This document shows, piece after piece, positions 33,801-64,000 of a DNA stretch of 64,000 nucleotides (position 1 is its first letter; each line of letters starts with the position of its first letter). The notes beneath the pieces are model-generated. The model saw only the letters and a list, made by a program, of their open reading frames with translations. It ran no database searches and was not told where the DNA came from. The stretch is taken from the IMG/VR virus record IMGVR_UViG_3300042453_003986, positions 14,042 to 78,041 of that record; one strand, 5' to 3'. The position numbers were made by a program, and so were the translations under genes. The stretch is from a virus.

Positions 33801-33983
33801 GAGAGTTACACGCTCTTGAAAATCTGATCCCAAACGCGCTGTCGGGTTTACTCGCTTAGCCTCAGCACCAAAATCTGCAGAAACACCAGACAGTGCGCTT
33901 TTAGCTTCCTCTGAATTTTTTTCAACAGCCGTAAGCAAGTTTACGATTTGCGTTAATTGACTAATTGTTTCTTCCATAATCAC
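18858..33983 (-). CDS. Giant tape-measure-like protein (5041 aa) with DEDDh exonuclease and thermonuclease domains
   Basis: Follows major tail and chaperone genes; helical and Ala/Gln-rich; TMP-like motif AFDPAQGMEGASIAIKEFLSGN..SLSRRF; embedded nuclease motifs. Confidence 0.85.
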   Translation of the reverse strand: MIMEETISQLTQIVNLLTAVEKNSEEAKSALSGVSADFGAEAKRVNPTARLGSDFQERVTLAVFALEQFVDDVRNNAITPADRADTLRTIQSMVQAVTRDLKTAASSMSEVTDTRRITERPTESTAPSSRRSRFYKETESTDAPAERPVPLIYSERPSNFSIDNSLFRRVFGFSPSLRNSSKDYETFAALLKDYLTTVPEAEQPSLYKAVATADLTVLKNAIKETFKEAPDEKDVQEQISALLKQIASTMLSSIGYALEGGGMTAPQLVGGTASAVVKLTENVGNRLRKILRQAVVNTKRLTAAGRTLPPQGVNQVEQTLKVGLEDILSDDGRATVYLSTDTDHTDEVNSAITQRFSSTFRAIESFVQNLNPRRRYRQEAQGIDTKVGSQITGFQSSAVFPTQFLLSAEAATTQLRKIVQEQIEKKDVVTVSVGGKAVQLPRALAEQFAPAVQATKRASTYSGVLGGGITGKSFTSMFGGAGGVQQVSNLYAAELINNYVQNGDVSADPEEFVAQLFGESSKDTEITPAQLFIQRLLEDLERQSVKLEREAVQAASGESRALLNHRAREVKNQIAFVRKITSSETSPQERAYLVTGVQSGEGISIDTALATLYGSHVFTPFPAAAPEIVDYAAGLLQNLQEQGLAGRERPYETQSSAVYLENALAGYTSEDGRTADPIAKIKGLGIEGFERARERTAGGQPYAALEFFSDYFGLGVQRGSAGGSLPAAQIASAYLDESGNFDVTRAREAYATNPQMTLNNLQTLFYAMTDVGRRDLPLLGIVKSLSSVPAKEVPFLLEEIAKVAPGIAQVLNSSRAREGLAAASKKDSTVERMRGILQAISPMLQAAYTQYASGVLGVGSPEEARKILESDTVAPEFLQLSKTYKMLSAEELNNPNNTFVQGLTYLASGASAAEMAESPLDFMAAILGTQDQLAEVRRQQEQAPLTIEELAQQRYPVAQAAGEQLRQAVGVFPERRTAQKQKRLLELRNLQDQLAVLRVNGATQASITYLEDQIKRTKLAIDDEERPMAPIERLRAQLSRDDLSSQQRAQLGTELAIREEAFNKYRFSDVGLDEGFGTDDFLARMRRKIEYQDAESAIPAELQQLHNRAFYETDSKEKEKLAEQIFKRAETLTEEERGKYDKFLELEKERRIRAAQYAQESSVFYGRASEGFEAQGALSFDPQAEMRDSYAVDDFVEEVIKGTPLARMVRSVEVSDQTYRRSAFDLDTLLFGDTSYSAAEASKAAQKQLAELPKDSSTSWEVQSAKEDILKLEAEINAYETEINEIETQAKKKKDQVNKAADEEISPVNEKIQSLKTQIAAIENREGQDTETDYDKFNVSMDLQPLKLELGQAEINAKSIEHERQYALGEIQRQHYTGLLKHSKKLAEEKRDDTKRSVSYPVVGIDYYKLPNEWVARVEGTEPKDIATALSQSFTGKEIPPELESAQTELAQLQEQVEAKLQERKSIAASAAPVRLEKIRRELADLREAARAGTVPADADYHAKISYLMQLEKEAEQEDPQVVNTALKTIDQQIESLKAQAAKIPRQAGDALVSRVAAERLRTSLFRRRQYLYSQLNINPKDSLLGLYRQRKETSSPQAARLLTRLITSSPLYQQLRFDLDYDDEKMNALFDTLLLKQDMAEQEAVGPTEADREFTTQALASYLQRARESDYALPENFDEAENRRALQMLQAKKSRGDSLTMQEQADYSQYRKYERNAQIRKAHQLVTNQPSAEPLVDFLKILYASLPQDYNLTGDKPEMIAKDVRIRNLLASIAELTDPASFQALAMIMNPRTSGRALDRAIASLPAADRAIINEAIAVLQEETNPGLALATSEIGKGMQEAQITDAVQIAAAEVAADKRRSGTSAASTSGRTAATKQKQDELDKAIKKRRDEEDAARKERRDRKEAAIREYRDREDAEIKKRRDEEDAARKERRDEREAALREYRDKEEPALKSQRDKEDAEIKERRDEEDAARKEKRDERKAALKEYRDREDAARKEKSKMKALALEVQASGEDIQTTWANPHYFAEYLKRFYIGEEIPPEVESALAELDQLDKQYDAASKIVGEVHLFGGTLEDYQKAQASKEEMNRTVSQAQKIQKQVGDALVSRLAAEEQQDESDAEIKERRDKNDELNKKKQDELDAAIKSQRDKEDAALKEQRDSEDAARKERRDEPDAARKERRDNIDELDKKKQDELDNVIKKQRDREDAARKERRDKNDELTKKKQDELDNVIKKQRDREDAARKERRDTIDAGIAAVIDVVGFDLETTIPKPGETAQILEFASVGGGKTATGAFATEVQSTMGSKEGPALSAKEIQKARSRLQRSAESGKTIVGHNIKEFDLPILFGGAENVPTIVQNQAVDTLQMANELQLPGSRTLGSLATLFGLEYDPTRLHEAAYDTDLNVRLYHELVKAQQEQKSNADQFSKNMLKRFFAQSQLTDEQKKLLQPLVTARRGYATDKVKQTSANLAYMLAHARRLDALKTASISGKGELQLFDSENRPITDQNYIKSVLAMFGHTLDTEISPEELRRMQDEAAKVTSMFDPYRVDGSLDTVYNLFNSVAGSVVGKGPAGVGASRYTTEAFSYLRSLVGAADMSLDPAALRSLLSRWGSFSAHGDMDKVTTPAAAGAAVLASALTDATAPTITARPSTERKPAEVSGVDITKATLTGERGAAAERVLRADELIGIAEEKATQSSEELKRQEQAVNDASAYVARVQKIKDWMTRRYAKYPSRLISINAKVAHGEDNLRKAEQTLKEMETVVTAATAEKEAAFAEKSEAVSALELITTKKEAYEEEKLAVSEPSVASVSDTPESSVTVVESTLDDKAVAEMAGEITSTRTRKPRASGKESRKKHESAESVGSGSSGSGSGGGGGAVSATISGGAEFSGPVTITNLDARNLEVASIEKATINATNVNLSLHSGASLGSIEVKQILTKEAVSSKSRSPLTIENYHAGSVARQNIQSAPGAVFGGGGFGGGGGGGYYGKNPALLARENELSVLRNNFQERRGQFAGLDDAAAQQQLKQQTSDFIKESLRLIQSDVLQTDKYTAGTAAEAPRVALKSAIDEMIDPANEAAVAANFGSRLEAIAGLVKQYVDTLDTSTLPEDVAKAAKSEIDGLNRTVQSAREQGYYTLTAVSKDQTSIDNAARNKAREDEAAAREAARVDEADKRKRDIVANESRKNAMLTAKGVLGSARTAFDLAGGELNGQTFAVGRAELIKTTVDALRDTTELDALSTVVSGLASAEPDNVREFTAALNQLNQAADDANLTEAATAFAKLTKVAADLQERVTASTTLTDAEKQSAMSALTLFTSRASQTDYIKPTAGVIEATERKRMSVLEEQLQAAAGRPGFFGLRRDSTQRRLLKEYAQERFGQAGADIMYNDRSMRFQARTENGGRIDLIEASAEDLKRLQEDLGNAGAPIGLEELQKLQNVMSRTQQTRNQTPFADPLFFAASRIRDIQTLGMTAMSALSLPSTIAGIIDQAASPALNAVRSMTSLRGLSRDQGVFNKAVAAASEQQALFGGSLTSNIGNITSFIPLTNAYGVDISQVVNVARKLAAFDPAQGMEGASIAIKEFLSGNVASLSRRFEINRSALSKIDIGNATEMLDKLDEVLAQMGVTDQLINEAANSRAAQYDKMLGRLETMGIKVSEFAVGVATPLLESILGPSSVLGEMADTSTINLMRDEGLKFTGSKALSKLADVDMYAPDLSTFTRQVDKVLQEANDEIALAAASYQKTTGVTPLVSPYRLLENMKPEERVQFRNMAQANRLFKGMTTEQALMQASRDMGGDYASYQEFVNQRKLLPTNRMSYEQMIKSDRFTELKADAEKAMIDEVARGAGGAFRPGILTALASPSTFLVGSLIASGVESASRSGASLKRATIGKVTDLDTFRTTSGERVRLVGIDAPETGSKAAIKAMSKAVEVGLRENENITYEAGGFDKYGRTLAVVYNEQGQMINSELIARGIAGAMTDNQAVNSFASFVADQGIGVVNEAAAKAGLGGLPVISDEVKRAYYMQTYFGGIGGTAGSVGTAVGGGMLTNATIGALAGSKMFAGSAAASAAAGAGIVGTAGLAALGAGVAAGGYALITRAIDLNDVSVEKMRQLYKMQTEFEKNQRMQNKFDSVYLANAGFSGNRETLINNELKKTRGRFIPNTKISEALAASGLTQAAYDEASTAIEKLYNQQDEQGKSILGTVVLSPDGTEMVSLTEALTQSLAFAQDANLRDTAVGKESQRLIGVGNELIDNADIIQLAQKYGLGITPSELGLNNNQLEALGLLESPAVLGRDYREAAQAAQGVSTQLTATQMARFLTSEQIKTYSDAMRQRLLNDPTYQVQAKEYMDQQFDQELQRKQQRFNTFAEQTALNNAMGLFGSAGPLSASQVMNSQFMRTSFADEGAKSALNDAVEESIKTFNAVSKHNKSMAELMGPYVSTFQTTFANYVAGFSRAGSAANTLRDYMSNGDPLFALNEMRRISGLDWRSMISQQMFLPQASSSAQLAQIPYYEMRRAFQPIDPRVARGADRLAGMQLPYTSGPRGRLAYANMIASNASITSLMNPAELMNVYSMGIQAQTELAQRNFQHNTQMRDLAINHNRSLEDITRNAFRQLEGIHLNATRQMVQAVQQRELSKRQSLAQNYSQLGSANMAESDRRKIDQVAQAGKKFADQAEQSNPAAFLRFQGRYSSESTALLEKAFTAYDRLPITDLAGRDAAWAQVIKYRDQVVSEMTELMKTADPETRANLQAQAALLGRDPERGAQAQQFADQQVATMIQRAESEKALRLRREDLLRQQRYSGLEYQGLVQNMQAAQQSGDPLQIQQAARALSDFNIQQQRLSEEIQQINRELQNMIDVAPLWSDFWTQGYVNIEETTSTTMSGLINQYEDFNIGLKQQIEDALINLARQKDDLVRSFTDAATEIATQVPATMAKGVAAIMQYTNDMTAVEGLISRGRFDEANNLASAANNRLALSLYGSTETPEAKTLKAQLSVNAREVPTAFDAYSVDTPEGKALRVYTVSTTSPAKPPKDRPFPMPSGQGILQ
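27230..28350 (-). repeat. 33-nt (11-aa) tandem charged repeats inside the giant protein
   Basis: Units such as DEEDAARKERR, DREDAEIKKRR and DERKAALKEYR; recurring nucleotide string tctcgtctttctttacgtgctgc. Confidence 0.9.
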
Positions 33984-44699: not shown

Positions 44700-45347
44700 A
44701 TGGCAAAAAGTCGTCGATTTCAGGAGATACTGGATAGTTACTCAGACAAGTATGACTTGGCTACGCTATCGTCTCCGAACGACCGAGCAAACCTTGAGAT
44801 GCTCATCAACAATCAAGTAATCGTTGAAAGTATTCAAGCAAAGCTTCAAGAGCTGACGGAAGACGATCCAGTGGAGAATATTGACATTATTCAGCGTTTA
44901 GGCTCGTCTCTTAAAGACATTATTGAGCGAAATTTGCAACTGGAGCGTGCACTTGCTCTTGATCGAAAGACTCGCAACACTAACACGTCTGAGTCGGTCG
45001 CGGAGTACCTTGTAAATTTAAAGCAGGTGGCTTTAGACTTTTTAGAGAAGCGCCTACTGCGCGTGTACTGCCCTGATTGTAAAATCATGGTTGCGCGTCT
45101 TTCGATTGTGCAAGAGCACAGCCCATTTTCACTTCGTGTCAAGTGCAGTCAATGTGAAAAAGATGTAATTATAGAGCGAGAAGAAAAAGACATCTTTTTT
45201 GACGTAGCCGACTCTGCGTGGAGAAGAAAGTACCAATACAAGGTTCAGAAGGCAAAGAAAACCGAATCTTCCATTGAAGAGGTTGAAGACGACCTGCTGC
45301 TTGTTGACCCTGAGGAGGACAGCGATGCTCATTCCGAAGCTCAGTGA
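44700..45347 (+). CDS. Putative terminase small subunit
   Basis: Directly upstream of and overlapping the large terminase; helical with CPDC..CSQC. Confidence 0.5.
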   Translation: MAKSRRFQEILDSYSDKYDLATLSSPNDRANLEMLINNQVIVESIQAKLQELTEDDPVENIDIIQRLGSSLKDIIERNLQLERALALDRKTRNTNTSESVAEYLVNLKQVALDFLEKRLLRVYCPDCKIMVARLSIVQEHSPFSLRVKCSQCEKDVIIEREEKDIFFDVADSAWRRKYQYKVQKAKKTESSIEEVEDDLLLVDPEEDSDAHSEAQ

Positions 45348-47922
45348 GGCCGAGTATGCTCTGTTAGAGGTGATTGAGGACCCTATCTGGCTAAACGAGT
45401 TTCTGCGGTCGACTAATTATGGTGACATGAACAAAAGTAATTGGCCGGCAGAGGAGTTTTCGTTTCGTCCGTATCAGCGTGAGCTGCTTACAGACCAATC
45501 GCCGCATATTGTAGTTACTGGGGGACGTGCTATTGGAAAGTGTCAGCCAGCACATGCACGCGTGTACACTACCGAAGGATACAAAACTATCACGCAGTTG
45601 AAGAAACAGCCGTCTTTTGTGACATACGGATACTCGGAAGAAACAAAGACATTTACTAAACGACGAGCGTACATTCGCAGGGACAAGTGGAAACGTTGTT
45701 TTCACATTAAGTCAGCGACAGCACGCGATCTTATCGTCACAGATGCTCACCCAGTCCTCACGCCTAAAGGGTACGTTATGGCTGGTCATCTGCGTGTCGG
45801 CGACCTCATTGCTACAATGAATCAGTTACCGACTGAGCACTGTCAAGACACAACGATGAAGTGGGCAGAAGCGCGAGCATTAGGTTACTTTTCTGTAAAC
45901 AGCTTATATGTCCGTTCTTCCGGAGGAATTAAGCCCAGATTTCGCAAGATTGAGGCGGAATTGCACGCAATTGCAGAAGATCTGTACTTGCAGGTAAGAA
46001 AGCTTGACGATGGCCGCGTATACTTAGATCGACTAAAAGCCAGCGGAGTAAAACATACCGTAACTCAGCTTCGGCTAGAGTTGGGTTTGCTTAAAGAAGA
46101 AGATCGTCGAGTAAACCGCCTTGACTGGTTAAAGACATACTCTTTACCGACAATCAAGGCATTTATTGAGGCTGCTTTTGCTCAGTACGGTAACTTGTCG
46201 TTAGACCGAGTATCTCTAAAAGTAACCAATCGGGCGTACGTAGAAGATTGGCGAGAAATTTTGCTATACTTCGGAGTTTCCACTACAATTACAAAATTAG
46301 CCGATCATACCGACGAACGTCATGACCTAGACATTGACGACAGCGTCTGGCTGCTGGAAACTGCTACAAAACGAGATGCTCGCGTGTTTTGGGGTCAGTT
46401 TACTCTGCCGGGTGTGGCTATTTCAGAAAAAGCAGCAGAGCCGATGGCCTCTGAATGGTTTCGATGGGAACCTATTACCGAAATCAGCATTACTAATCGA
46501 TTTAATTTGACCTACTCCATTCATGTGTACCAAGACGAAACGTACATTTCAGAAAACATCGTGGTGCATAACTCGGTCATTCTGGAAGACTTGTTGACGT
46601 ATCAGGTGTTAAATTCAAATATTGAATTTCCAAAAACACCTGAACAACTACTCGTTACGCCAAATACTTCGCAGATGACCCCATTACTGGATCGACTAGT
46701 GTTGAAGTTTACTACTTCTCCGATGCTAAAAGATTTTCTTAAAAATCAAATTAACCGATCAAAAGGAACGCTTGACTTTAGTATGGGAGCGCGACAGCAT
46801 CGTTTGTACGCACGTATTGCCGGTAGCAAAGAGGCAAACAACCTTGTAGGTCTGCACATTCCTAAGGTATGCGGAGATGAGTTCCAGCTTTTTTCTATGT
46901 CTGCGTTTAACCAGCTGCAGCCTACTATCAACACTTGGGAAAGCAAAGTACAGGAGGTATATTTCGGAGTACCAAACGGTATGCGAAATATGGCGATTTA
47001 CGTGCTAGACATGAAGATGGCCAAGTTTAAAAAGTACCGCATTCCTGCACCCAATAACCCGTACTTCACTCGCGATGACTGGAATGACGCGCTGGCAAAA
47101 TTTGGTGGAGAAGACAGCGACACCTTCCAACAACTAATTCTTGGCCGTCACGGCTCTCCTTCGTTTCAGCTACTTTCTCGCGATCAGATGAAAACGGTCC
47201 CGATTGACTTCTACCGGTATCGATACGCGCAAGCCGACAAAGAATCGGGTAAATCGTATCGAGATGCTCTTCCGGTCATTAAGCTTCCTCCTCACTTAGA
47301 TGTCGTATTCTCGATTGACACCGGATTTTCTGATCCAACAATTATCCAAGTACTTATCCGTACCGAGACTTACTGGGTATGCGTACGGCGATACCGTATT
47401 CAGCGCATCGACTATCCAGAGCAAGAACAGATTATTGACTACCTTGTAAAAGCGTATCTTCCCTCACTCGTGGCAGTAGACGTAGGTGCTGGAGGCGGTG
47501 GTGCAGGAATTATCCAAAGTTTGAAAACAAGGCCTGAGTATGCTGCGATGAACTACGCAAAGCGAATTCTCCCTGTGCAGTTTAATGAAAAAGTGGTGCT
47601 GGGTGCTGCGGACGAAATTGAAGTCAGTGAATCATTTAAATCGTGGGGCACTGGCGAGCTTGTCAAGAATATCTATAGCGGTAATTTAGTATTTTCTGAA
47701 GTAGACGCGGAAGGCATCTCGCAGCTTGAACGCTTGGCTCGTCAACGACGTACTAGCGGAGCAATGCACTACTTTATTACTTCGCCCCGAGGCTTTGGAG
47801 AGACAGCCGATGATCACATTTACGCAAGCTACTTATGTTTTATTGCCGCTCTTCGTGAGCCAAAGCAAGCGGCCTTAGTTCCGTCCTTGGCAAGGGCGAC
47901 CAGTCAATTTACACAGAGGTAA
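45325..47922 (+). CDS. Terminase large subunit with intein
   Basis: RPYQ, Walker A GGRAIGK|S split by the intein, GDE Walker B, GVPNG, SIDTGFSDPT nuclease, DDH. Confidence 0.9.
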   Translation: MLIPKLSEAEYALLEVIEDPIWLNEFLRSTNYGDMNKSNWPAEEFSFRPYQRELLTDQSPHIVVTGGRAIGKCQPAHARVYTTEGYKTITQLKKQPSFVTYGYSEETKTFTKRRAYIRRDKWKRCFHIKSATARDLIVTDAHPVLTPKGYVMAGHLRVGDLIATMNQLPTEHCQDTTMKWAEARALGYFSVNSLYVRSSGGIKPRFRKIEAELHAIAEDLYLQVRKLDDGRVYLDRLKASGVKHTVTQLRLELGLLKEEDRRVNRLDWLKTYSLPTIKAFIEAAFAQYGNLSLDRVSLKVTNRAYVEDWREILLYFGVSTTITKLADHTDERHDLDIDDSVWLLETATKRDARVFWGQFTLPGVAISEKAAEPMASEWFRWEPITEISITNRFNLTYSIHVYQDETYISENIVVHNSVILEDLLTYQVLNSNIEFPKTPEQLLVTPNTSQMTPLLDRLVLKFTTSPMLKDFLKNQINRSKGTLDFSMGARQHRLYARIAGSKEANNLVGLHIPKVCGDEFQLFSMSAFNQLQPTINTWESKVQEVYFGVPNGMRNMAIYVLDMKMAKFKKYRIPAPNNPYFTRDDWNDALAKFGGEDSDTFQQLILGRHGSPSFQLLSRDQMKTVPIDFYRYRYAQADKESGKSYRDALPVIKLPPHLDVVFSIDTGFSDPTIIQVLIRTETYWVCVRRYRIQRIDYPEQEQIIDYLVKAYLPSLVAVDVGAGGGGAGIIQSLKTRPEYAAMNYAKRILPVQFNEKVVLGAADEIEVSESFKSWGTGELVKNIYSGNLVFSEVDAEGISQLERLARQRRTSGAMHYFITSPRGFGETADDHIYASYLCFIAALREPKQAALVPSLARATSQFTQR
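45541..46572 (+). mobile_element. Intein (344 aa) in the terminase Walker A motif
   Basis: Starts CQPAHARV, block B VTDAHPVLT, ends YISENIVVHN followed by Ser; central LAGLIDADG-like remnants. Confidence 0.9.
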
Positions 47923-55352: not shown

Positions 55353-56810
55353 ATGCTGAAAGCACTCGTACAGAATGAGACGGTCACCAACAACGGCATG
55401 GCGGCCTACCGCTCAACAAACTCGGCCTGTTTAGACCTGTTCTACAAGATCGGGGCAAGCCGCGGGAAGGACATCACTCAGCCGTTTTTTGCTGCCTATC
55501 AGGAAAACCGCGAATTAGCTCTTCGCATTGCCCTTTGGGCACGAGACGCACGTGGAGGTGCGGGCGAACGCCAAGTGTTTCGCGACATCTTGGTTATGCT
55601 CGAAGAGCTTGACCCAATGCTGGTGCGGCTCTTAATCCCACGCATTCCTGAGCTTGGCCGCTGGGATGACCTGCTGGTGTTCAAGACCAACTGGGTGAAA
55701 TCTGCTGTCTACAGCTTTATTGCCGTAGCCCTTGAAGCAGGGGATCGCCTCTGTGCCAAGTGGATGCCGCGAAAAGGCCCTGTCGCAGCGGAACTGCGGC
55801 GCGTATTGGGGAAGTCTCCTCGCGAGTACCGCAAGTACTTGGTAGAGCGCACCCATGTCGTAGAGTCGCAGATGTGCGCCCGTCAATGGGACCGCATCGT
55901 GTTCGACACCGTACCCAGCTTGGCTAGCGCCCGGTACCGCAAGGCGTTTTGGCGGAACGCCGAAGAGGCATACCGCACGTACGTTGAGGGCTTGGCCAAC
56001 AAGACCCGCAAGGTACATGGCAACTTGTTTCCTCACGACGTGGTTCGCTCAGTGCTCTTCTCAGAAGCCACTGATCCTGCGTTTCGCGCACTTGAGGAGC
56101 AGATGATCGAAGCGCAGTGGGCCGCTTTGCCGACCTACTTGCAAGATGCTCGTATTCTTCCGTTAGTCGACGTCAGCGGGTCGATGACCTCGCCGATTTC
56201 GGGGAAGCTGCGGGCGATGGACGTGGCCATTTCTTTGGGTTTGTACTGCGCAAGCAAAAACACTGGCCCATTCAGTGACTTGGTCATGACTTTTTCAGAG
56301 GTACCGACGCTGCTGTCTCTGGAAGGATCGGTCGTCGAAAAAGTGCGTCAGCTGGAGAGCGCTCCTTGGGGTATGAACACCAACTTTGCTGCCGCCTTGC
56401 AAGAGCTGCTGAGCCTTGCCCAGCGAGAGTCTGTGCCCCAGTCAGAGATGCCGGAAGTACTGTTGGTGTTGTCCGACATGCAGTTCGACTCGGTGGAGTC
56501 ATACCGCAGCAAGAAGACAACTGCTCTTGCAGAGGTACGTGAGAAATACGTGCTTCACGGGTACACGCCGCCCACGATCGTGTTCTGGAACCTCAAAGAT
56601 GAGGACAACGTACCGGCCACCCTGCGGCACGACAACACGGTCTTGGTAAGCGGCTACTCACCCGCGTTGCTCAAGAGCCTCTTGGCCACGTTACAGGCGG
56701 TTCGCGGACAGGACGCGCACGCTCGTACACAAGCGCTGCAGAACCTCTCGCAGGCCATGATGTACCTTACGGTAGACGTCCCACGGTACGATCCTCCGGT
56801 ATCCGTCTAG
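55353..56810 (+). CDS. DUF2828-family TROVE-like + vWA domain protein
   Basis: T.NG..ST.SACLDLF, ARD.RGG.GER, GRWDDL, AKW.PR, MIDAS DVSGSM, WGMNTNF, SDMQFD, IVFWNL, VSGYSP. Confidence 0.85.
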   Translation: MLKALVQNETVTNNGMAAYRSTNSACLDLFYKIGASRGKDITQPFFAAYQENRELALRIALWARDARGGAGERQVFRDILVMLEELDPMLVRLLIPRIPELGRWDDLLVFKTNWVKSAVYSFIAVALEAGDRLCAKWMPRKGPVAAELRRVLGKSPREYRKYLVERTHVVESQMCARQWDRIVFDTVPSLASARYRKAFWRNAEEAYRTYVEGLANKTRKVHGNLFPHDVVRSVLFSEATDPAFRALEEQMIEAQWAALPTYLQDARILPLVDVSGSMTSPISGKLRAMDVAISLGLYCASKNTGPFSDLVMTFSEVPTLLSLEGSVVEKVRQLESAPWGMNTNFAAALQELLSLAQRESVPQSEMPEVLLVLSDMQFDSVESYRSKKTTALAEVREKYVLHGYTPPTIVFWNLKDEDNVPATLRHDNTVLVSGYSPALLKSLLATLQAVRGQDAHARTQALQNLSQAMMYLTVDVPRYDPPVSV

Positions 56811-56870
56811 TCGACTAGCGCAACGGCCTCAGATTGGCCACCAGCCGCGATCTGCGGCACTTCTCCCTCT

Positions 56871-56902
56871 CCCCCTTACTCAGAGTAAGGGGGTGCTTTT
56901 TT
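56871..56902 (+). terminator. Intrinsic terminator
   Basis: CCCCCTTACT/AGTAAGGGGG hairpin then TGCTTTTTT. Confidence 0.75.
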
Positions 56903-57140
56903 GTGCCCGCAAAACGGCGCTGGTGATGGCCACGACCGAACGAGGGGCTGACAGGAGCAGGGGCCAAAACGGGTCGGTGGGTTTTTAAAATTTGTGAGGG
57001 TCACAGGGGAAATAGGGGGGAGACTTGTGACTACTTTGTGACTACCATGCACAGTAGTCAACGGTCAGACTAACAGTTAGTACTGACTGCTTGTGACTTG
57101 CAAATGTCAAGTCACCGACGTCCGCAGAAAGGACAGTACC

Positions 57141-57449
57141 GTGAAGATCATCATCCACCCCACCGCCACCGCCGACCTTGCCCGCATCCCCGCCGCCCAC
57201 ATCCTCGTCAGCCTCCGGGCTGACGGCATGTACGAGGTCTCGATCTCGGTCGACCCCGAGGTCGAGGTCTTCGAGACCATCGACCCCGAGATCGAGGTCT
57301 TCGAGACCATCGACCCCGAGATCGAGGCGATGGACGACGAGATCGAGGTCGCCATCGACCCTGAGGTCGAAGTCGACGTTGACGACCAGTATGAGTACTG
57401 GTACGAAGACGAAGACGACTGGGAAGTCGTCGACGTTGAGGTCGAGTAA
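57141..57449 (+). CDS. Highly acidic repeat protein
   Basis: GAAAGGA RBS + GTG; (I/V)DPE(I/V)EV repeats (30-nt tandem units). Confidence 0.7.
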   Translation: MKIIIHPTATADLARIPAAHILVSLRADGMYEVSISVDPEVEVFETIDPEIEVFETIDPEIEAMDDEIEVAIDPEVEVDVDDQYEYWYEDEDDWEVVDVEVE

Positions 57450-57450
57450 G

Positions 57451-57560
57451 CAGCGAAACACGTCTCACTCAGTGCGATTGAGTGAGACGTGTCTACGGTT
57501 GTTGCTCATAAGAGTAACGTAAAATTGATCCGTACTGATGAGCTGTTTCAGTATTCTTAC
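57451..57560 (+). ncRNA. Type II hammerhead ribozyme, copy 1
   Basis: CAGC-GAAA, 14-bp stem III, GTC site (cut after 57493), stem I TACGG/CCGTA, CTGATGA, GCTG; loop I TAAGAGTA pairs with 3' tail TATTCTTA. Confidence 0.92.
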
Positions 57561-57575
57561 AGCAAGGAGTTTGTC

Positions 57576-58016
57576 ATGTTGAAGTTGCTTAAGCTTGTGT
57601 TTGTATTCATCGTCCGCGCAATCATCGTCGCCGCAGCAGTCGCAGCGGCTGTCGGCACCATCGTCGAGCTTTCGCTCGGTGAGGGTGTTGGCTACTTGGT
57701 AGCTATTGTCCTCGGCGTCGTTATGCTAATCACGCCTGCTGTTGAGGCAGTCGTGCGGTCAACACAGCTCATCAAGGCGGGTAACCGCTTCGAGGCGGCT
57801 GTCGCAGCCTTCATGGCTGCGCAAAGCGAGTACGCCGAGCGCAAGGCGTTGGCTGAGGTCCGCGCTGAGTGGAAAGCAGTCCACGGGGTCCTCTGGGAAG
57901 TTGAAAAGTGGTACGGCTGTTCAGCAGCTGCAAAGCGGATGACCGCCGACGTCCAGTCACGCGTATTCGCTTGCGAGCGCGCACACGAGAACAGCCGGCA
58001 CGGCAACAACTGGTAG
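57576..58016 (+). CDS. Two-TM membrane protein, paralogue A
   Basis: AAGGAG RBS; two hydrophobic helices; LWEVEKWYGC. Confidence 0.7.
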   Translation: MLKLLKLVFVFIVRAIIVAAAVAAAVGTIVELSLGEGVGYLVAIVLGVVMLITPAVEAVVRSTQLIKAGNRFEAAVAAFMAAQSEYAERKALAEVRAEWKAVHGVLWEVEKWYGCSAAAKRMTADVQSRVFACERAHENSRHGNNW

Positions 58017-58025
58017 TTGTTGCCC

Positions 58026-58057
58026 CTGCAACGCTCACCTGCAGATATGGATGTGAG
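58026..58057 (+). ncRNA. Pseudoknot motif B, copy 1
   Basis: CTGCA-acg-CTCAC-c-TGCAG-atatggat-GTGAG. Confidence 0.6.
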
Positions 58058-58116
58058 AAGTATTGTCTGCGGACTACACAGTGTAGATCCGCTTAGCTCT
58101 TGAAAGGAGCACGGCT

Positions 58117-58350
58117 ATGCCAATCTACTTCATCTTGACCAACGGCTGTATCCGCGGCTTCGGCAGCGAGGAGATTTACCACATCGGGGTTGACCCCGAG
58201 GTGGAAATCAGCCAGCTCCGTCGGGGCGAATTCGTTCGCCTCGAGTGGAGCCTCTACCGCGTTATCTCGGTAGACGGGAACGAGGCTGTGTTGGCGCGGT
58301 CCAAGCGGTCGAAAGGCCGCTGGGCGCGCGCAACGCGCATCGGCCGCTAG
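58117..58350 (+). CDS. Hypothetical protein
   Basis: GAAAGGAG RBS; 77 aa. Confidence 0.65.
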   Translation: MPIYFILTNGCIRGFGSEEIYHIGVDPEVEISQLRRGEFVRLEWSLYRVISVDGNEAVLARSKRSKGRWARATRIGR

Positions 58351-58460
58351 CAGCGAAACACGTCTCACTCAGTGCGATTGAGTGAGACGTGTCTACGGTT
58401 GTTGCTCATAAGAGTAACGTAAAATTGATCCGTACTGATGAGCTGTTTCAGTATTCTTAC
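58351..58460 (+). ncRNA. Type II hammerhead ribozyme, copy 2
   Basis: Identical to copy 1, 900 nt downstream; predicted cut after 58393. Confidence 0.92.
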
Positions 58461-58475
58461 AGCAAGGAGTTGGTC

Positions 58476-58961
58476 ATGTCTACACTGTTCAAGATGATGT
58501 TCGTGTTCGTCACGATGGCGTTGCGTGCCATGGCGATCGCCATGGCGATCGCCATTCCGTTCGGGGTCGGCTACGAGTGGTGGTTAGGCCACGGCAGCGG
58601 ATACTTGATGGCTGCGGCCATCGTGGTCCTTCTGCCAACATTCGCTTTCCTCCACGGCCTCTGGGTCGTGGGGAGCCTGATCCTCGCGAGCAAGCGCCTT
58701 CAGGAGGAGTTCAACATCCTCCGCGACATGCTTGCGGAAGGCGCCGGTTGGAGTCTGCGGGAGCAGCTCCGCGACGTTGTCGACGCCCGAAACGCCGTCT
58801 TCCAGAATCTCTGGGAGATGGAGAAGTGGTGGCTTTGCGATGTGATCGCGCGCGACATGATGTCGCGCATCGATCGCGAACGCCGCACCCTCGAATACGC
58901 CGTAGAGCGTAACATCGAGGCGGCACAGGCACGTCGCAACTCCAGCGATTTCCGCTGGTAG
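58476..58961 (+). CDS. Two-TM membrane protein, paralogue B
   Basis: Same RBS context as paralogue A; LWEMEKWWLC. Confidence 0.7.
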   Translation: MSTLFKMMFVFVTMALRAMAIAMAIAIPFGVGYEWWLGHGSGYLMAAAIVVLLPTFAFLHGLWVVGSLILASKRLQEEFNILRDMLAEGAGWSLREQLRDVVDARNAVFQNLWEMEKWWLCDVIARDMMSRIDRERRTLEYAVERNIEAAQARRNSSDFRW

Positions 58962-58970
58962 TTGTTGCCC

Positions 58971-59002
58971 CTGCAACGCTCACCTGCAGATATGGATGTG
59001 AG
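58971..59002 (+). ncRNA. Pseudoknot motif B, copy 2
   Basis: Identical to copy 1. Confidence 0.6.
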
Positions 59003-59031
59003 AGTATTCACGTTTAGCCTTTAGAAAGGAG

Positions 59032-59217
59032 GTGAACACCATGTACGATCCCGACAAGGACGAGGTCATCGAGGAAGAGATGGCAGAGTTTTCAGCTCTT
59101 GAGCAGGTCGCAGCTGAGCTGCGCGCGCAAGGGCTGGGCTGGGAATGTCCCTACTGCTGCAGCGACGTCGCTGCAGCGATGGAGGCATGCCGCGAGTGCG
59201 GCTATCCCAGCCTCTAG
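59032..59217 (+). CDS. Small acidic Zn-ribbon protein
   Basis: GAAAGGAGG RBS; CPYC..CREC. Confidence 0.65.
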   Translation: MNTMYDPDKDEVIEEEMAEFSALEQVAAELRAQGLGWECPYCCSDVAAAMEACRECGYPSL

Positions 59218-59225
59218 CTGTCCGC

Positions 59226-59255
59226 CTGCAACGCTCACCTGCAGTAGGATGTGAG
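59226..59255 (+). ncRNA. Pseudoknot motif B, copy 3
   Basis: Same stems, shorter linker (taggat). Confidence 0.6.
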
Positions 59256-59286
59256 AAGCATTTGCGTCTAGCTTCTTGGAAAGGGG

Positions 59287-59499
59287 GTGAATAGCATGGC
59301 GCGATTAAGCCTCCCGATCATGGAGGCCGTGGCCTTGGCTCAGGTCCATTACGGATCGAACGCCAAGATCCGGCCGCAATGGTCGGCTGAGCACGCGCTG
59401 TGGGTAGTGGTGCTGCCACCCAACCCGCAGCGTGGGCTTGTCGCCGCAGCCTTCGAGGCTGCTGGCGTATTGGTGCTGGCCGAGATCCGGCCAGCGTAG
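59287..59499 (+). CDS. Hypothetical protein
   Basis: Purine-rich RBS; fits between spacers. Confidence 0.55.
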   Translation: MNSMARLSLPIMEAVALAQVHYGSNAKIRPQWSAEHALWVVVLPPNPQRGLVAAAFEAAGVLVLAEIRPA

Positions 59500-59557
59500 T
59501 TCGCCGGGGCGTACTCGTTACGTAGTGCGCAATGCGTAGCGAGTATGCTCCCTGTCC

Positions 59558-59586
59558 TTGCGGCCTTCATAGTATGCCGCTATAAT
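59558..59586 (+). promoter_or_regulatory. Possible sigma70-type promoter
   Basis: TTGCGG-17-TATAAT, the same hexamers as the promoter at 41548. Confidence 0.45.
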
Positions 59587-59666
59587 AGAATTACTATGAC
59601 CACTGCGGAATACAAGGTACCGTTCCGCGACCTTATTCTAGGTACCTGATGAAAGGAGCTTGCCGT

Positions 59667-59909
59667 ATGGCAAGTCTATTCATCGCGGCCTTGGCCGCAC
59701 TAGTGGCCGCATCGGCCACAGCCGCGTACTACCGCGGCACCATCGCCGCCCACGCCGCCGTCCGCTTGGCCTTGCGGGCCAAGCGTGCGGGCCGACGCGC
59801 CCGCGCCAGCCGCATTGCGCGCTGGCATCGCAAATCAGCGCTTCGCCGCGCTGAGGCGCGCGGTGCACGAAAGGCCAAAGCGCAGGTTCGCCTGCGCCTA
59901 GGCCTCTAG
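59667..59909 (+). CDS. Small membrane-anchored Arg/Ala-rich protein
   Basis: GAAAGGAG RBS; hydrophobic N-terminus and very basic tail. Confidence 0.6.
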   Translation: MASLFIAALAALVAASATAAYYRGTIAAHAAVRLALRAKRAGRRARASRIARWHRKSALRRAEARGARKAKAQVRLRLGL

Positions 59910-60038
59910 GCAGCCGGAGTAATGGGCGTGTACTCCGTTAACAAAACTCTGCCCACCATTGCAGACGTGATGCACCTGCGACAATGATCTTGCATCCTGG
60001 CCTACGGGCCAGCGAACGACGAGAAAGGAGGACGTCCT

Positions 60039-60161
60039 ATGGCTAGACTACACGGGTTACGGCTACCGTGCCCTCGTACGCCTAGCCGCAGTGCATGGCT
60101 AGTCCGCTTCTGGGCCCTCGCAGACGGACTGGCAGGTTACAGGAGGGCAGAAAGGAGGTAG
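60039..60161 (+). CDS. Possible 40-aa peptide (not in ORF track)
   Basis: GAAAGGAGG RBS; MARLHGLRLPCPRTPSRSAWLVRFWALADGLAGYRRAERR. Confidence 0.4.
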   Translation: MARLHGLRLPCPRTPSRSAWLVRFWALADGLAGYRRAERR

Positions 60162-60162
60162 G

Positions 60163-60576
60163 ATGATCGAAATCCTCCTCGCCTTGGTGTGCTACTCAGG
60201 CGGCAGGTGCGAAGAGCCCTCGTTGCCGATGGCATACGAGGCGGCGGTCGTCGCGATGTGCGAGAGCGGCGACACGCTACGATTGGGCTCCCTCGACTGG
60301 GAGGCCGTCAACGTCAACGCCGACGGCACGCGTGATACGGGCGCGTTCCAAATGAACTCGTATTGGGTGTGGTCCGGAGAGGACCGCTGGTTCATCAACC
60401 AGCTCGCGTGGGAATTGAAAATGTCCCCCGACACCCTGCTTGCAGCGTGGCCAACTGCAGGTGATGCGCCCCCGGCAGCGCAACTCAGGGCCTTTTATCT
60501 GTTATGGGACGAGGGCCGTGGCTCGTCCCATTGGGCGGCATCTCAGCACTGCTGGGGTCCGCTACTGGGGAAATAG
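60163..60576 (+). CDS. Secreted lysozyme-fold / lytic transglycosylase-like protein
   Basis: Signal-like N-terminus; CESG, N.N.DGT.DTGAFQMN..W, G.SHW....C. Confidence 0.65.
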   Translation: MIEILLALVCYSGGRCEEPSLPMAYEAAVVAMCESGDTLRLGSLDWEAVNVNADGTRDTGAFQMNSYWVWSGEDRWFINQLAWELKMSPDTLLAAWPTAGDAPPAAQLRAFYLLWDEGRGSSHWAASQHCWGPLLGK

Positions 60577-60578
60577 CT

Positions 60579-60800
60579 ATGTCTAATGAACATTACGTGC
60601 TTAGCGCACGTAGCCCAGAGTGGCTGGTCGCACAAATTCGCCGCGCAGGTCTCTGGGCACGTGTTGGCGAGGACTATGGGACGGTGATCGTCCCGGCCGA
60701 CCGGAAACGCCTCGCCGAAATCTGGAGAGCGCTGGGCGGCGGCCCTAGTTACCGCCCGTGGGAAATGCTGAGCGAAATCGACGGCAACTTCGCAGAGTAG
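60579..60800 (+). CDS. Hypothetical protein
   Basis: ATG 2 nt after the previous stop. Confidence 0.55.
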   Translation: MSNEHYVLSARSPEWLVAQIRRAGLWARVGEDYGTVIVPADRKRLAEIWRALGGGPSYRPWEMLSEIDGNFAE

Positions 60801-60806
60801 CTCAGC

Positions 60807-60838
60807 CCGCAAGGCTCACCTGCGGATATGGATGTGAG
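60807..60838 (+). ncRNA. Pseudoknot motif B, copy 4
   Basis: CCGCA/TGCGG (compensatory change) plus CTCAC/GTGAG. Confidence 0.6.
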
Positions 60839-60871
60839 AGTATTAGACGCGCAGAAAGAAAGGAATCTAAC

Positions 60872-61642
60872 ATGCGCACAATTTCAGCTGGGATGGGCTT
60901 CGGCCTGTCCATCCAAAACGGCCAGTTGGTTGGCCACAACATCAGCGTGGGGCGCTTCGCCTGCGACCACGTCGCGGCAGGTGCCGTGGGCGTCGCTGTC
61001 AACTCGGCTACGGCTGAGCTGACGGCGTTTGTCCGCCGCCCCAGCGAACAGCTCGGGGCGTTGGTAAGCAGGTTCACCGACGAAGTGTGCAAGCTCAACT
61101 TGTACATTATTACCGACGTAGCGGTCTCTGACCGCGCGATCGGTCTCATTGGGCAAGACGCTTACGGATACCGCTTGGTCGTGGTAGGCTACGCGGGCCT
61201 ACCGCATCAGTCGGCTGTCAGCGACCTTATAGTCGACGACGGTCGGCTGTTCCAGCCAGACCCGTCAACGACAGGGTGGCTACTTGCCGTCAAGTCGCCG
61301 CTGCGCTGGCAGGTCACTAACGTCGCTCCGGCGTTGACAGTCACCAACGAGTGGCTGTACTCTCCTGAGGGGGAAAAAGCGCCGTTTAGCCACTACAGTC
61401 CCGACACCGGGCTGGAGTGGACGCACTCCGAGTACCACGGGGAGTGCGTAGCGGCATACGCTGACTACGTAGCCACCCTGAACGGCGGCGTGGTCTACCC
61501 CTCAGCCAACTTGGGCAATCAGTACCAAGTGCGGTACATGCCCACATGGAGGGGCTGGAAAGACTTGGCCTTCGGTCATCAGTGCGGCATCGGCCGTGCT
61601 GAGGACGGTTCTGTGCACTTCTGGGGTACGCAGCCCCAGTAA
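60872..61642 (+). CDS. Hypothetical protein
   Basis: GAAAGGA RBS; 256 aa. Confidence 0.65.
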   Translation: MRTISAGMGFGLSIQNGQLVGHNISVGRFACDHVAAGAVGVAVNSATAELTAFVRRPSEQLGALVSRFTDEVCKLNLYIITDVAVSDRAIGLIGQDAYGYRLVVVGYAGLPHQSAVSDLIVDDGRLFQPDPSTTGWLLAVKSPLRWQVTNVAPALTVTNEWLYSPEGEKAPFSHYSPDTGLEWTHSEYHGECVAAYADYVATLNGGVVYPSANLGNQYQVRYMPTWRGWKDLAFGHQCGIGRAEDGSVHFWGTQPQ

Positions 61643-61647
61643 GTGCA

Positions 61648-61683
61648 CCGTGGAGTCGAGTAACCACGTTAAAATACTTTCAG
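61648..61683 (+). repeat. Intergenic motif D, copy 1 (36-nt exact repeat with 63037-63072)
   Basis: CCGTGGAGTCGAGTAACCACGTTAAAATACTTTCAG; CGTGG/CCACG stem. Confidence 0.75.
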
Positions 61684-61706
61684 TGTTATTAGTATGGAGG
61701 TGCGTT

Positions 61707-61808
61707 ATGTTGATCAACAAGTTGATGAAGGCAGGGTTTAAGCCCCGCCGGTCGACAGTGAACCGCTGGCTCGCTCCCGTGCGGAAGTTCCGCCGGGTAG
61801 TATGGTAA
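61707..61808 (+). CDS. Small basic peptide (33 aa)
   Basis: GGAGG RBS; MLINKLMKAGFKPRR... Confidence 0.5.
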   Translation: MLINKLMKAGFKPRRSTVNRWLAPVRKFRRVVW

Positions 61809-61818
61809 GGAGAAAACT

Positions 61819-62238
61819 GTGGAAAACATCATCATGCAGGCGGGCGACGAGGTCCGCGTGTACTGGAACAGCCGGAAACGGGTGTTTTCAGTACAAGTTC
61901 GCGACACCCAGAACCGCTGGGTCGTCGCCGGCTACACGAATAGCCTTGTGCTGACCGACGTCACCTTTACGGTGAGCAAGGCCGGGTTGGCCCGTGCTCG
62001 TCGCGAAGGTGTCAAGAATGTCCACGCCTATGTGCGTGGGACCGTGCCCGCTGATGATCTGTTCACGCGCTGGGGCGTGGACAACTGCACGGCCAGCGTG
62101 TACTACAGTTACCACGTCGGTAGCTTCCACACCCGCGCAGGTGTCCATATCGACGACGCACGGTACGCCGTGTTAGCCGTCGAAGACGCCCGCCCCGTCA
62201 TCCGCGTGGCCCCGGTCACTGAGGTGGCCGAGGTCTAG
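61819..62238 (+). CDS. Conserved phage hypothetical protein
   Basis: VRVY.N....FSV...L.DV.F.VS.AG..R..REG.KNVHA.V.G, recognised as a common phage family of unknown function. Confidence 0.65.
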   Translation: MENIIMQAGDEVRVYWNSRKRVFSVQVRDTQNRWVVAGYTNSLVLTDVTFTVSKAGLARARREGVKNVHAYVRGTVPADDLFTRWGVDNCTASVYYSYHVGSFHTRAGVHIDDARYAVLAVEDARPVIRVAPVTEVAEV

Positions 62239-62243
62239 TTCAT

Positions 62244-62270
62244 CCGGAGCAGGTAACCGGTCAACCTTGC
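62244..62270 (+). ncRNA. Pseudoknot motif C, copy 1
   Basis: CCGG-aGCAGGTaa-CCGG-tca-ACCTTGC. Confidence 0.55.
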
Positions 62271-62295
62271 GCTTTAGTAACAGTAGGAGTGTGCC

Positions 62296-62772
62296 ATGGA
62301 AATCAAGCTCACTTACCAAGTCACCGACACTCACGGCAATGCCGTCGAATTGGAGGTGCAGCAGTTGCTGCTGGCGGTTCCTTCCCAGAAGGAGCTGTTG
62401 GAATGGTGCTGGTCCGTTGTCCGCAACCAGCGTTGGGAGTTCGTCTCCCAATGGATACTGGAAGTTGACAAGGAGGTCGTGGACATCCCCGAGTGGGGGT
62501 TGAAATTCGTGCATACGTCCGTCACCAATGGCTTTGCCATCGAAGACGGTGGAGTCGAGGAGTCAGTCTTTTGGCTTACTAAGCCGTTCGTCTCCTTTAC
62601 GGCCGAGGAGCTGAGCAGTATTGAAAGGGAGTGGTCCCATCGAGATGATAACTGCGTGTACAAAGCACCCGGGATGCACTCGGGCGGCGTCCTCATGGAC
62701 GGCTTGCCCACCGGGGCGCCAGTAATCGAGTTGTCGGTTTACGTCCGCGACGTTTTGCCGTACAGCCGCTAG
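62296..62772 (+). CDS. Hypothetical protein
   Basis: AGGAG RBS; acidic, 158 aa. Confidence 0.65.
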   Translation: MEIKLTYQVTDTHGNAVELEVQQLLLAVPSQKELLEWCWSVVRNQRWEFVSQWILEVDKEVVDIPEWGLKFVHTSVTNGFAIEDGGVEESVFWLTKPFVSFTAEELSSIEREWSHRDDNCVYKAPGMHSGGVLMDGLPTGAPVIELSVYVRDVLPYSR

Positions 62773-62777
62773 TTTGT

Positions 62778-62804
62778 CTGGAGCAGGTAACCAGTTAACC
62801 TTGC
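62778..62804 (+). ncRNA. Pseudoknot motif C, copy 2
   Basis: CTGG-aGCAGGTaa-CCAG-tta-ACCTTGC. Confidence 0.55.
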
Positions 62805-62826
62805 GCTTTAGTACAAGAGGTGCATT

Positions 62827-63030
62827 ATGTGGCAACTTCTCTACGCAAACGCGCTTCTCGCTGTGTACATGCAGGACACCGCTAAGGTGCCTGCGTATCG
62901 GGTGGTGTTTAAGGGCGAGCAGAAGGTGTTCCGGGGGCCGAACGCTCGCTGGGACGCCGCCGCCTACATCCGTGAGCTGGACTGGGATACGTGGGCATCC
63001 ATGATTTCCCACGAGATTGACTGGGAGTAG
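62827..63030 (+). CDS. Hypothetical protein
   Basis: GAGGTG RBS; 67 aa. Confidence 0.6.
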   Translation: MWQLLYANALLAVYMQDTAKVPAYRVVFKGEQKVFRGPNARWDAAAYIRELDWDTWASMISHEIDWE

Positions 63031-63036
63031 TACTCC

Positions 63037-63072
63037 CCGTGGAGTCGAGTAACCACGTTAAAATACTTTCAG
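63037..63072 (+). repeat. Intergenic motif D, copy 2
   Basis: Exact copy of 61648-61683. Confidence 0.75.
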
Positions 63073-63093
63073 CTCTACTGTATGGAGGTTGTT

Positions 63094-63510
63094 ATGGAAT
63101 GGACACGAGGCGAGTGGGCAAACCGCGGCTACGTAGATAGCCGCCCCCGGCCGTTCGACGCCCCCGACATCCGGGCTACGGAGCAGCTGCTCCGCAACAT
63201 CAACCCGCAGACTCCGATCGACCCCGAAGGAGCGGTCGGATACTGGGAAGTTCCCAACTTCACTTACCGGCCTATTTGGGCACACGTCACCGTAGTGACA
63301 CCCCGTCGCTATGCGACATGGGAGGTAATGATGGTTCCGGTACGGGATCTCAAGTGGCAAGGCGACCCGAACGTCGAGCGCGCTATTGAGCGTCTCTGGC
63401 CCCGGGCTACGAGGACCGTTGTTTGGTGGCGTGGGTTTTTCGGGAACCGCACGCCGACCACTGTCGACTACGTCAAGCGGTTGCTCCACTACCGCAACGT
63501 CGTAGAGTAG
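63094..63510 (+). CDS. Hypothetical Trp-rich protein
   Basis: GGAGG RBS. Confidence 0.65.
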   Translation: MEWTRGEWANRGYVDSRPRPFDAPDIRATEQLLRNINPQTPIDPEGAVGYWEVPNFTYRPIWAHVTVVTPRRYATWEVMMVPVRDLKWQGDPNVERAIERLWPRATRTVVWWRGFFGNRTPTTVDYVKRLLHYRNVVE

Positions 63511-63515
63511 CTGTA

Positions 63516-63542
63516 ACGGAGCTGGTAACCGTATAACCTAGC
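63516..63542 (+). ncRNA. Pseudoknot motif C, copy 3
   Basis: ACGG-aGCTGGTaa-CCGT-ata-ACCTAGC; compensatory changes in both stems. Confidence 0.55.
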
Positions 63543-63564
63543 AGTGTAGTAAGAGGAGATTGTT

Positions 63565-63933
63565 ATGGGTTACAAAGTTATTGTGGTTTCGCGAAGTAAG
63601 GAAGTGTTCTCGGCGTTCACGCTGGACGTGTACCCGGTAGCTTCTCACGAGGAGGCTATTAAGCTGGTTGAAGATGCAGACCACAGTCTGCGCCAATCGT
63701 ACGCGTGGGTCCCCGGAGGGGATTGGTTCTACGCCGCGAACATCCTAGCCTTTGAGGTCACTCCTCGGGGCGACTGCGAGTTTGGGTTGCGGTATTTCTG
63801 TTTAACCGATGAAGAGGTCGCTAAGGAGTGTGCAGCGCGCAAAATGGACGTAGCTAAGTGTATGGAAACCCGCGCGGCTATACGCGCTAAGCCCGCGGAA
63901 CCGTACGCGTTTATTGCTCGGTTCAAGAACTAG
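63565..63933 (+). CDS. Hypothetical protein
   Basis: GAGGAG RBS; 122 aa. Confidence 0.65.
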   Translation: MGYKVIVVSRSKEVFSAFTLDVYPVASHEEAIKLVEDADHSLRQSYAWVPGGDWFYAANILAFEVTPRGDCEFGLRYFCLTDEEVAKECAARKMDVAKCMETRAAIRAKPAEPYAFIARFKN

Positions 63934-64000
63934 TTTTCCGAACGCCGATGAAACGTACTTTCGGCATACATCAAAGGAGGTACTCATATGGAGTACACAG

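Follow-up and report, generated by a model that had tools for sequence, protein, structure and literature searches.

The 64,000-nt stretch of viral DNA analysed here (the window) carries two type II hammerhead ribozymes at two junctions of an array of small genes, and these are genuine and conserved and are confirmed as sequence motifs by the Rfam match, the predicted fold, genome shuffles and a scan of unrelated loci. Active hammerheads of this type probably cut a terminator-poor phage transcript co-transcriptionally at both junctions, giving discrete mRNAs. The window corresponds to bases 14042-78041 of a 78,041-bp IMG/VR virus record that has 73-bp identical ends and is rated complete. As the record encodes a DNA polymerase, a ribonucleotide reductase, a portal protein, a probable terminase and tail-fibre-like proteins, we assign it to a tailed phage. 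This phage and diverged relatives are represented by DNA contigs in lake, estuary and freshwater metagenomes. Two further ORFs of the window deserve mention: an 882-aa ORF (45274-47922), with weak matches to Terminase_6C and Intein_splicing that are both under the Pfam cut-offs, may be a large terminase subunit split by an intein, and one 5041-aa ORF on the minus strand (18858-33983) has tandem repeats with a 33-nt unit in two blocks (27142-27665 and 27949-28373).

Sequence and fold of the two hammerheads

The conserved core (C3 U4 G5 A6 N7 G8 A9, G12 A13 A14, A15.1-U16.1 and H17) is complete in both copies, and the helix order and the position of the core are those of the type II permutation of the hammerhead (Table 1). 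Three helices surround the core, with 5 bp in stem I, 6-7 bp in stem II and 14-16 bp in stem III (14 Watson-Crick pairs, or 16 if the extra loop-closing pairs are counted); stems I and III are looped and stem II is open. With standard pairs adjoining the core (G10.1-C11.1, U1.1-A2.1 and A15.1-U16.1), both copies agree with the acceptance rule of Perreault 2011, which allows no mispair there. Direct reading of the letters therefore upholds the preliminary description, which had reported two complete type II hammerheads with core and stems I-III. Folding 131 nt to minimum free energy produced the three-way junction of a hammerhead (z = -4.3). All parts of hammerhead 2 lie at +900 relative to those of hammerhead 1, and the block that is identical between the two (57449-57570 versus 58349-58470) begins at the stop codon and reaches as far as the ribosome-binding site. 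The predicted cuts, after C57493 and C58393, are spaced by exactly 900 nt, so the coordinates also agree with the earlier statement that cutting both copies would free exactly 900 nt with two ORFs and motif B, one of the structured repeats described below.

Table 1 Coordinates of the hammerheads and neighbouring features. Positions are those of the window unless a contig is named; variant b is the form of both window copies and variant a the form at the first junction of the relatives.
Feature	Positions	Strand	Basis or remark
Strong intrinsic terminator closing the DUF2828 gene	56871-56903	+	10-bp stem, then T-run
Acidic repeat protein gene	57141-57449	+	ORF list; immediately precedes hammerhead 1
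Hammerhead 1, type II, variant b	57448-57548	+	Sequence, RF02276, minimum-free-energy fold, descriptor scan and shuffles
Hammerhead 1 stem II 5' strand, AAGCAGC	57448-57454	+	Overlaps upstream stop TAA 57447-57449
Hammerhead 1 G12 A13 A14	57455-57457	+	Direct sequence reading
Hammerhead 1 stem III hairpin	57458-57492	+	A15.1 at 57458 to U16.1 at 57492; 7-nt loop
Hammerhead 1 C17	57493	+	Predicted cut directly after
Hammerhead 1 stem I	57494-57534	+	TACGG 57494-57498 / CCGTA 57530-57534; closes 31-nt loop I
Hammerhead 1 core CTGATGA	57535-57541	+	Direct sequence reading
Hammerhead 1 stem II 3' strand, GCTGTTT	57542-57548	+	Direct sequence reading
Hammerhead 1 3' tail	57552-57569	+	Pyrimidine tract TATTCTTA 57552-57559; Shine-Dalgarno AAGGAG 57564-57569
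Gene A, 146-aa predicted membrane protein	57576-58016	+	ORF list; first ORF of the 900-nt unit
Motif B, putative H-type pseudoknot, ~31 nt	58025-58057, 58970-59002, 59225-59255, 60806-60838	+ (copy 1)	Four-copy alignment
Gene B, 77-aa ORF	58117-58350	+	ORF list; second ORF of the 900-nt unit
Hammerhead 2, type II, variant b	58348-58448	+	100% identical to hammerhead 1; predicted cut after C58393
Gene A', 161-aa paralogue of A	58476-58961	+	First ORF after the hammerhead 2 cut
Motif D	61645-61703, 63034-63092		Weak RF03081 (DUF805 RNA) match
Motif C	62235-62279, 62769-62813, 63507-63551		Repeat in the window
Variant a hammerhead region	L087 8174-8309; L091 8919-9054	-	Pattern scan of contigs

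The Rfam Hammerhead_II search proposed in the preliminary description came out partly in its favour: RF02276 was the best Rfam family for both copies and its model was matched over the full length (positions 1-66), but the score of 25.6 bits is below the 37-bit gathering cut-off. Scanning 151 nt gave an E-value of 0.0016 and searching the whole 78-kb genome one of 2e-4 for each copy; the family was reported neither by the whole-window scan at the gathering threshold nor by a 4-kb E-value scan. We attribute the sub-threshold score to the 16-nt insertion in stem III and to the 29-31-nt loop I (about 10 in the model), not to the core. The window elements and RF02276 have the same core, the same helix order, the G10.1-C11.1 pair and the C15.2-G16.2 pair. 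A descriptor scan of the 78-kb genome found two sites only, hammerheads 1 and 2. Across 100 dinucleotide shuffles of the genome, a mean of 0.21 minimal matches was obtained and none of the shuffles gave a match with helices of at least 4/4/4, while about 1 Mb of unrelated phage loci contained only weak chance matches with 3-bp stems I and III.

Two other features of the same letters were considered and dismissed. Stem III was rejected as an intrinsic terminator because a T-run is absent 3' of the hairpin. An ORF that starts at a GTG in stem III, crosses the ribozyme and continues into gene A was judged to be due to chance, given the short stretch involved and the strong Shine-Dalgarno sequence 6 nt before the ATG at 57576.

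The gene array and its diverged relatives

Both hammerheads are on the coding strand, and each fits exactly between the stop codon of one gene and the ribosome-binding site of the next. The small genes of the array are all on the plus strand, and nearly every spacer has a structured repeat between stop codon and ribosome-binding site. Since a strong terminator closes the DUF2828 gene upstream, no comparably strong one follows from 56903 to the end of the window, and the genes share one strand, the hammerheads lie inside a long polycistronic unit. Just past the terminator, the segment 56967-57135 is 92% identical to the relatives, above its surroundings, and has four TTGTGAC repeats within three inverted repeats; it is probably the regulated promoter/operator region of the hammerhead-bearing unit. 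The gene before the terminator (55353-56810), about 640 nt upstream of hammerhead 1, encodes a DUF2828/DUF7788/VWA protein assigned to PHROG 850 ('RNA-binding protein') and lies in a separate transcription unit.

Genes A and B had no Pfam or PHROG match and obtained no function from the ESM Atlas; seven homologues of the A/A' proteins were found. Proteins A and A' are 30% identical. In L091, one of two related contigs, gene A is 94% identical, the counterpart of gene B is divergent and encodes 76 aa, and the homologue of the extremely acidic protein, which is built from DPE(I/V)EVF repeats, differs in repeat number.

Other spacers hold further repeats. Motif B (CYGCA...CTCAC...TGCRG...GTGAG) stands just past a stop codon in each of its copies, the first of which lies between genes A and B; copy 4 has a compensatory T-A to C-G change, the motif also occurs in both related contigs, and it matched no Rfam family. 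Motifs C and D have in common a hairpin with a GGAG...GTAACC core and both end at a ribosome-binding site. The match of motif D to RF03081 reached 24.1 bits against a cut-off of 51.1, with an E-value of 0.24 in 3.3 kb.

A pattern scan of metagenome contigs returned six matches, two of which (L087 and L091) are true relatives and four of which are due to chance. The two contigs are syntenic with 56560-64000 of the window at 77-92% nucleotide identity. In each of them both gene junctions are again occupied by a hammerhead, at a spacing of 875 nt, although the flanking genes are only 77-82% identical to those of the window. The second hammerhead of both contigs is variant b, its tail differing by two substitutions. 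The first is variant a, which has another stem I (CACGGT/ACCGTG), a 7-nt loop I and a different tail. Its core and its stems II and III are unchanged relative to variant b, its 1.1-2.1 pair is C-G versus U-A in variant b, a compensatory change, and it scores 26.1 bits against RF02276 (cut-off 37). In all six copies (two in the window and four in the relatives) the eleven core nucleotides and the core-adjacent pairs are intact, and 96.8% of the helix cells of the alignment are paired, compared with 25-46% when the partners are slid. Covariation amounts to a single pair among five distinct sequences, and on this alignment we regard the comparative support for the hammerheads as real but thin.

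Searches elsewhere gave no additional copies. A blastn search with 56800-59300 against 50,697 phage records returned no match, and eighty IMG/VR loci with relatives of the DUF2828 protein (45-52% identical) contained no real hammerhead. Four DNA patterns and an A/A' protein profile likewise found no relatives in IMG/VR, in a collection that possibly does not include the window's own record. Six pattern matches in GTDB genomes were chance occurrences lacking helices.

The array also bears traces of exchange at the DNA level. Evidently, either the second copy of the window replaced the first or the reverse took place in the relatives. Because the paralogues A and A' are only 30% identical, the perfect identity of the two copies points to recent conversion and not to a constraint on length or sequence. 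Furthermore, variant a of L087 has the 7-nt stem III loop in inverted orientation (ATCGCAC versus GTGCGAT), a palindrome-mediated DNA event. One could then suppose that the element works as DNA, for instance as a palindrome that binds a protein or serves recombination and was spread by gene conversion, and that its likeness to a hammerhead is incidental. This supposition draws on the perfect long DNA palindrome with its loop inverted in L087 and on the recently converted stretch of ~120 nt that is 100% identical between such dissimilar genes, but a complete core with three placed helices was reached in 0 of the 100 genome shuffles, and the core was kept in variant a despite a different stem I and loop I and together with a compensatory change. 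Conversion between copies is compatible with a function in RNA, and we consider a purely DNA-level element extremely improbable.

Probable processing of the transcript and possible control of translation

The conserved core across six copies is hard to explain without selection for catalysis. Cleavage is known from comparable hammerheads: the clustered prophage hammerheads cleave in vitro and the array of A. tumefaciens also cleaves in E. coli (Perreault 2011, PMC3088659), and D. vulgaris has three type II hammerheads that are active in vivo (PMC8782182). We infer from the motifs site-specific cleavage at both junctions of the window. Double cleavage would yield an acidic-protein mRNA, a 900-nt dicistronic mRNA (A, motif B and B) and an RNA starting at A'. 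At their 3' ends the upstream products would carry stem III, a very stable hairpin of 14-16 bp, and a 2',3'-cyclic phosphate, and hammerhead 1 would in this way set the 3' end of the acidic-protein mRNA. The downstream products would begin with a 5'-OH, the stem I hairpin and a fixed, structured leader of 82 nt before the Shine-Dalgarno sequence. RNase E and RNase J depend on the ends of their substrates, and on this basis we infer that the product ends are shielded from 3' exonucleases and from 5'-monophosphate-dependent RNases. With their ends so defined, the ribozymes would act as natural insulators that give each segment its own ends, stability and translation context.

Some features speak against this reading. 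Fast cleavage at physiological Mg2+ needs a tertiary contact that the sequences do not secure, and the loop I/tail pairing is absent from variant a. The upstream stop codon is inside stem II, so that terminating ribosomes would compete with folding of the ribozyme. The contact, which holds stems I and II parallel, is usually a loop I/3'-tail pseudoknot, as claimed for both copies in the preliminary description. The complement does exist: loop I TAAGAGTA (57509-57516) can form 8 bp with the tail TATTCTTA at -8.0 kcal/mol. This energy was, however, matched by 207 of 2000 shuffled tails (~10%), and comparison with the relatives does not secure the pairing either, as in variant b of L087 one substitution changes G-U to G-C and another breaks a G-C, and in variant a the tail partner for loop I is absent. 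A pseudoknot in the window is therefore only plausible. Variant b has competing structures as well, since its tail can pair alternatively with the Shine-Dalgarno sequence (-4.4 kcal/mol), the arrangement chosen in the 131-nt minimum-free-energy fold, and within its loop I a hairpin of 8 bp is predicted. Loop I of variant a, ACUCUUA, has its complement in the Shine-Dalgarno region (-5.4 kcal/mol), with 50 of 2000 loop shuffles reaching an equal energy. ACUCUUA is also perfectly complementary to a stretch within loop I of variant b, UAAGAGU. Both variants might be taken to keep a complementarity between loop I and downstream sequence with the purine and pyrimidine strands swapped, but this is suggestive only.

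These pairings raise the question of whether the hammerhead fold is kept mainly as a structured 5' leader that controls translation, with cleavage slow or secondary. Such a role would accord with the choice of the variant b tail between loop I (-8.0) and the Shine-Dalgarno sequence (-4.4 kcal/mol), with the complementarity of variant a loop I to the Shine-Dalgarno region (-5.4 kcal/mol) and with the position of every intergenic element of the array, which ends just before a ribosome-binding site. The pairing energies are nevertheless small and weakly significant, variants a and b would affect Shine-Dalgarno access in opposite ways, and the core and core-adjacent pairs, intact in 6 of 6 copies, point to catalysis. 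We therefore consider a leader whose cleavage is secondary or slow rather unlikely and prefer co-transcriptional processing into discrete mRNAs.

The 900-nt cassette and known hammerhead systems

The preliminary description had suggested that the excised unit could be circularised and that ligating its ends would regenerate the ribozyme. The second point holds by construction, the copies being identical. As to the first, the excised 900-nt RNA might be circularised by host RtcB or by self-ligation of the hammerhead, or else the outer fragments might be spliced without the cassette. With identical ribozymes, the halves would reassemble into a complete hammerhead via the 6-7 bp stem II, and in the relatives the meeting halves are likewise compatible, variants a and b sharing the upstream half and the GCUG strand. 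Hammerhead cleavage leaves RtcB-compatible ends (PMC8782182), and the possibility of circles had been raised by Perreault 2011 (PMC3088659). A reassembled hammerhead with ends that RtcB can join makes the circle chemically possible. On the other hand, Perreault 2011 looked at comparable prophage arrays for circular and for spliced RNAs and saw neither (PMC3088659), a search of the phage genome showed that it encodes neither RtcB nor an RNA ligase, and the length of the unit is not conserved (900 nt here versus 875 nt in L087 and L091, two contigs whose flanking ribozymes are also non-identical). The pair probability of the end-to-end stem II is ~0.02 in the predicted ensemble of the 900-mer, which is a weak argument because the prediction ignores tertiary structure. 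The 900-nt back-joint was not seen in the DNA contigs, which cannot reveal an RNA circle, and a literature search found no report of circular phage mRNAs made by flanking hammerheads. No evidence obtained here favours a circle over plain linear processing, and 900 nt is just the length of the cassette. Taken together, circularisation or splicing of any of these kinds is very unlikely, and so is a cassette RNA joined end to end into a circular, translatable dicistronic phage mRNA. If true, the 900-nt circle would be an exonuclease-proof dicistronic mRNA and the first natural counterpart, in a bacterial virus, of retrozyme-type RNA circles.

The analogy with retrozymes, also put forward in the preliminary description, extends to topology only. 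Retrozymes and viroid-like RNAs, like the window, have two same-sense hammerheads that bound a unit of several hundred nucleotides and yield ends that are substrates for ligases (PMC4918200, PMC7761336). Their hammerheads are of type III or I, however, their units are non-coding, with LTR, PBS and PPT in plant retrozymes, or RNA-replicating, and their circles have been demonstrated (PMC4918200, PMC7761336), whereas the window has type II hammerheads around a two-ORF coding cassette in the operon of a dsDNA phage.

A further comparison is with engineered insulators. In RiboJ, a hammerhead just before the ribosome-binding site removes upstream RNA and leaves a hairpin-protected standard 5' leader. 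This synthetic insulator was reportedly engineered from a satellite RNA ribozyme by Lou et al. in 2012. The elements of the window differ in being natural and in that the upstream product, too, would carry a long hairpin at its 3' end.

The closest precedent is the set of clustered prophage hammerheads described by Perreault 2011 (PMC3088659), which were read as processing long phage transcripts into gene-length mRNAs. In those arrays as in the window, type II hammerheads follow each other on one strand over a few kb and enclose one or two small genes of varying identity, and pairing of loop I with the 3' tail as a pseudoknot was proposed for both. The window belongs with such clusters, having two copies 900 nt apart around two ORFs, a layout repeated in L087 and L091. 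It departs from the published arrays in its unusually long stem III (14-16 bp), its 31-nt loop I and the identity of its copies, and its lineage is known solely from uncultured freshwater and estuarine metagenomes, from sequence alone. By analogy, the acidic repeat protein encoded upstream of hammerhead 1 is a possible parallel to the anti-restriction gene ardA, which is flanked by the hammerhead array of A. tumefaciens (PMC3088659).

Work published in 2011 already contained the layout as well as the pseudoknot and circle ideas, and the window adds no new question to them. Rather, it is a clean, conserved example of the still unexplained hammerheads that punctuate phage operons. Owing to the long stem III, the occurrence of variants a and b at the same junction and the pairings with the ribosome-binding site, it may serve as a test case for whether such hammerheads act on mRNA ends and stability or tune translation.
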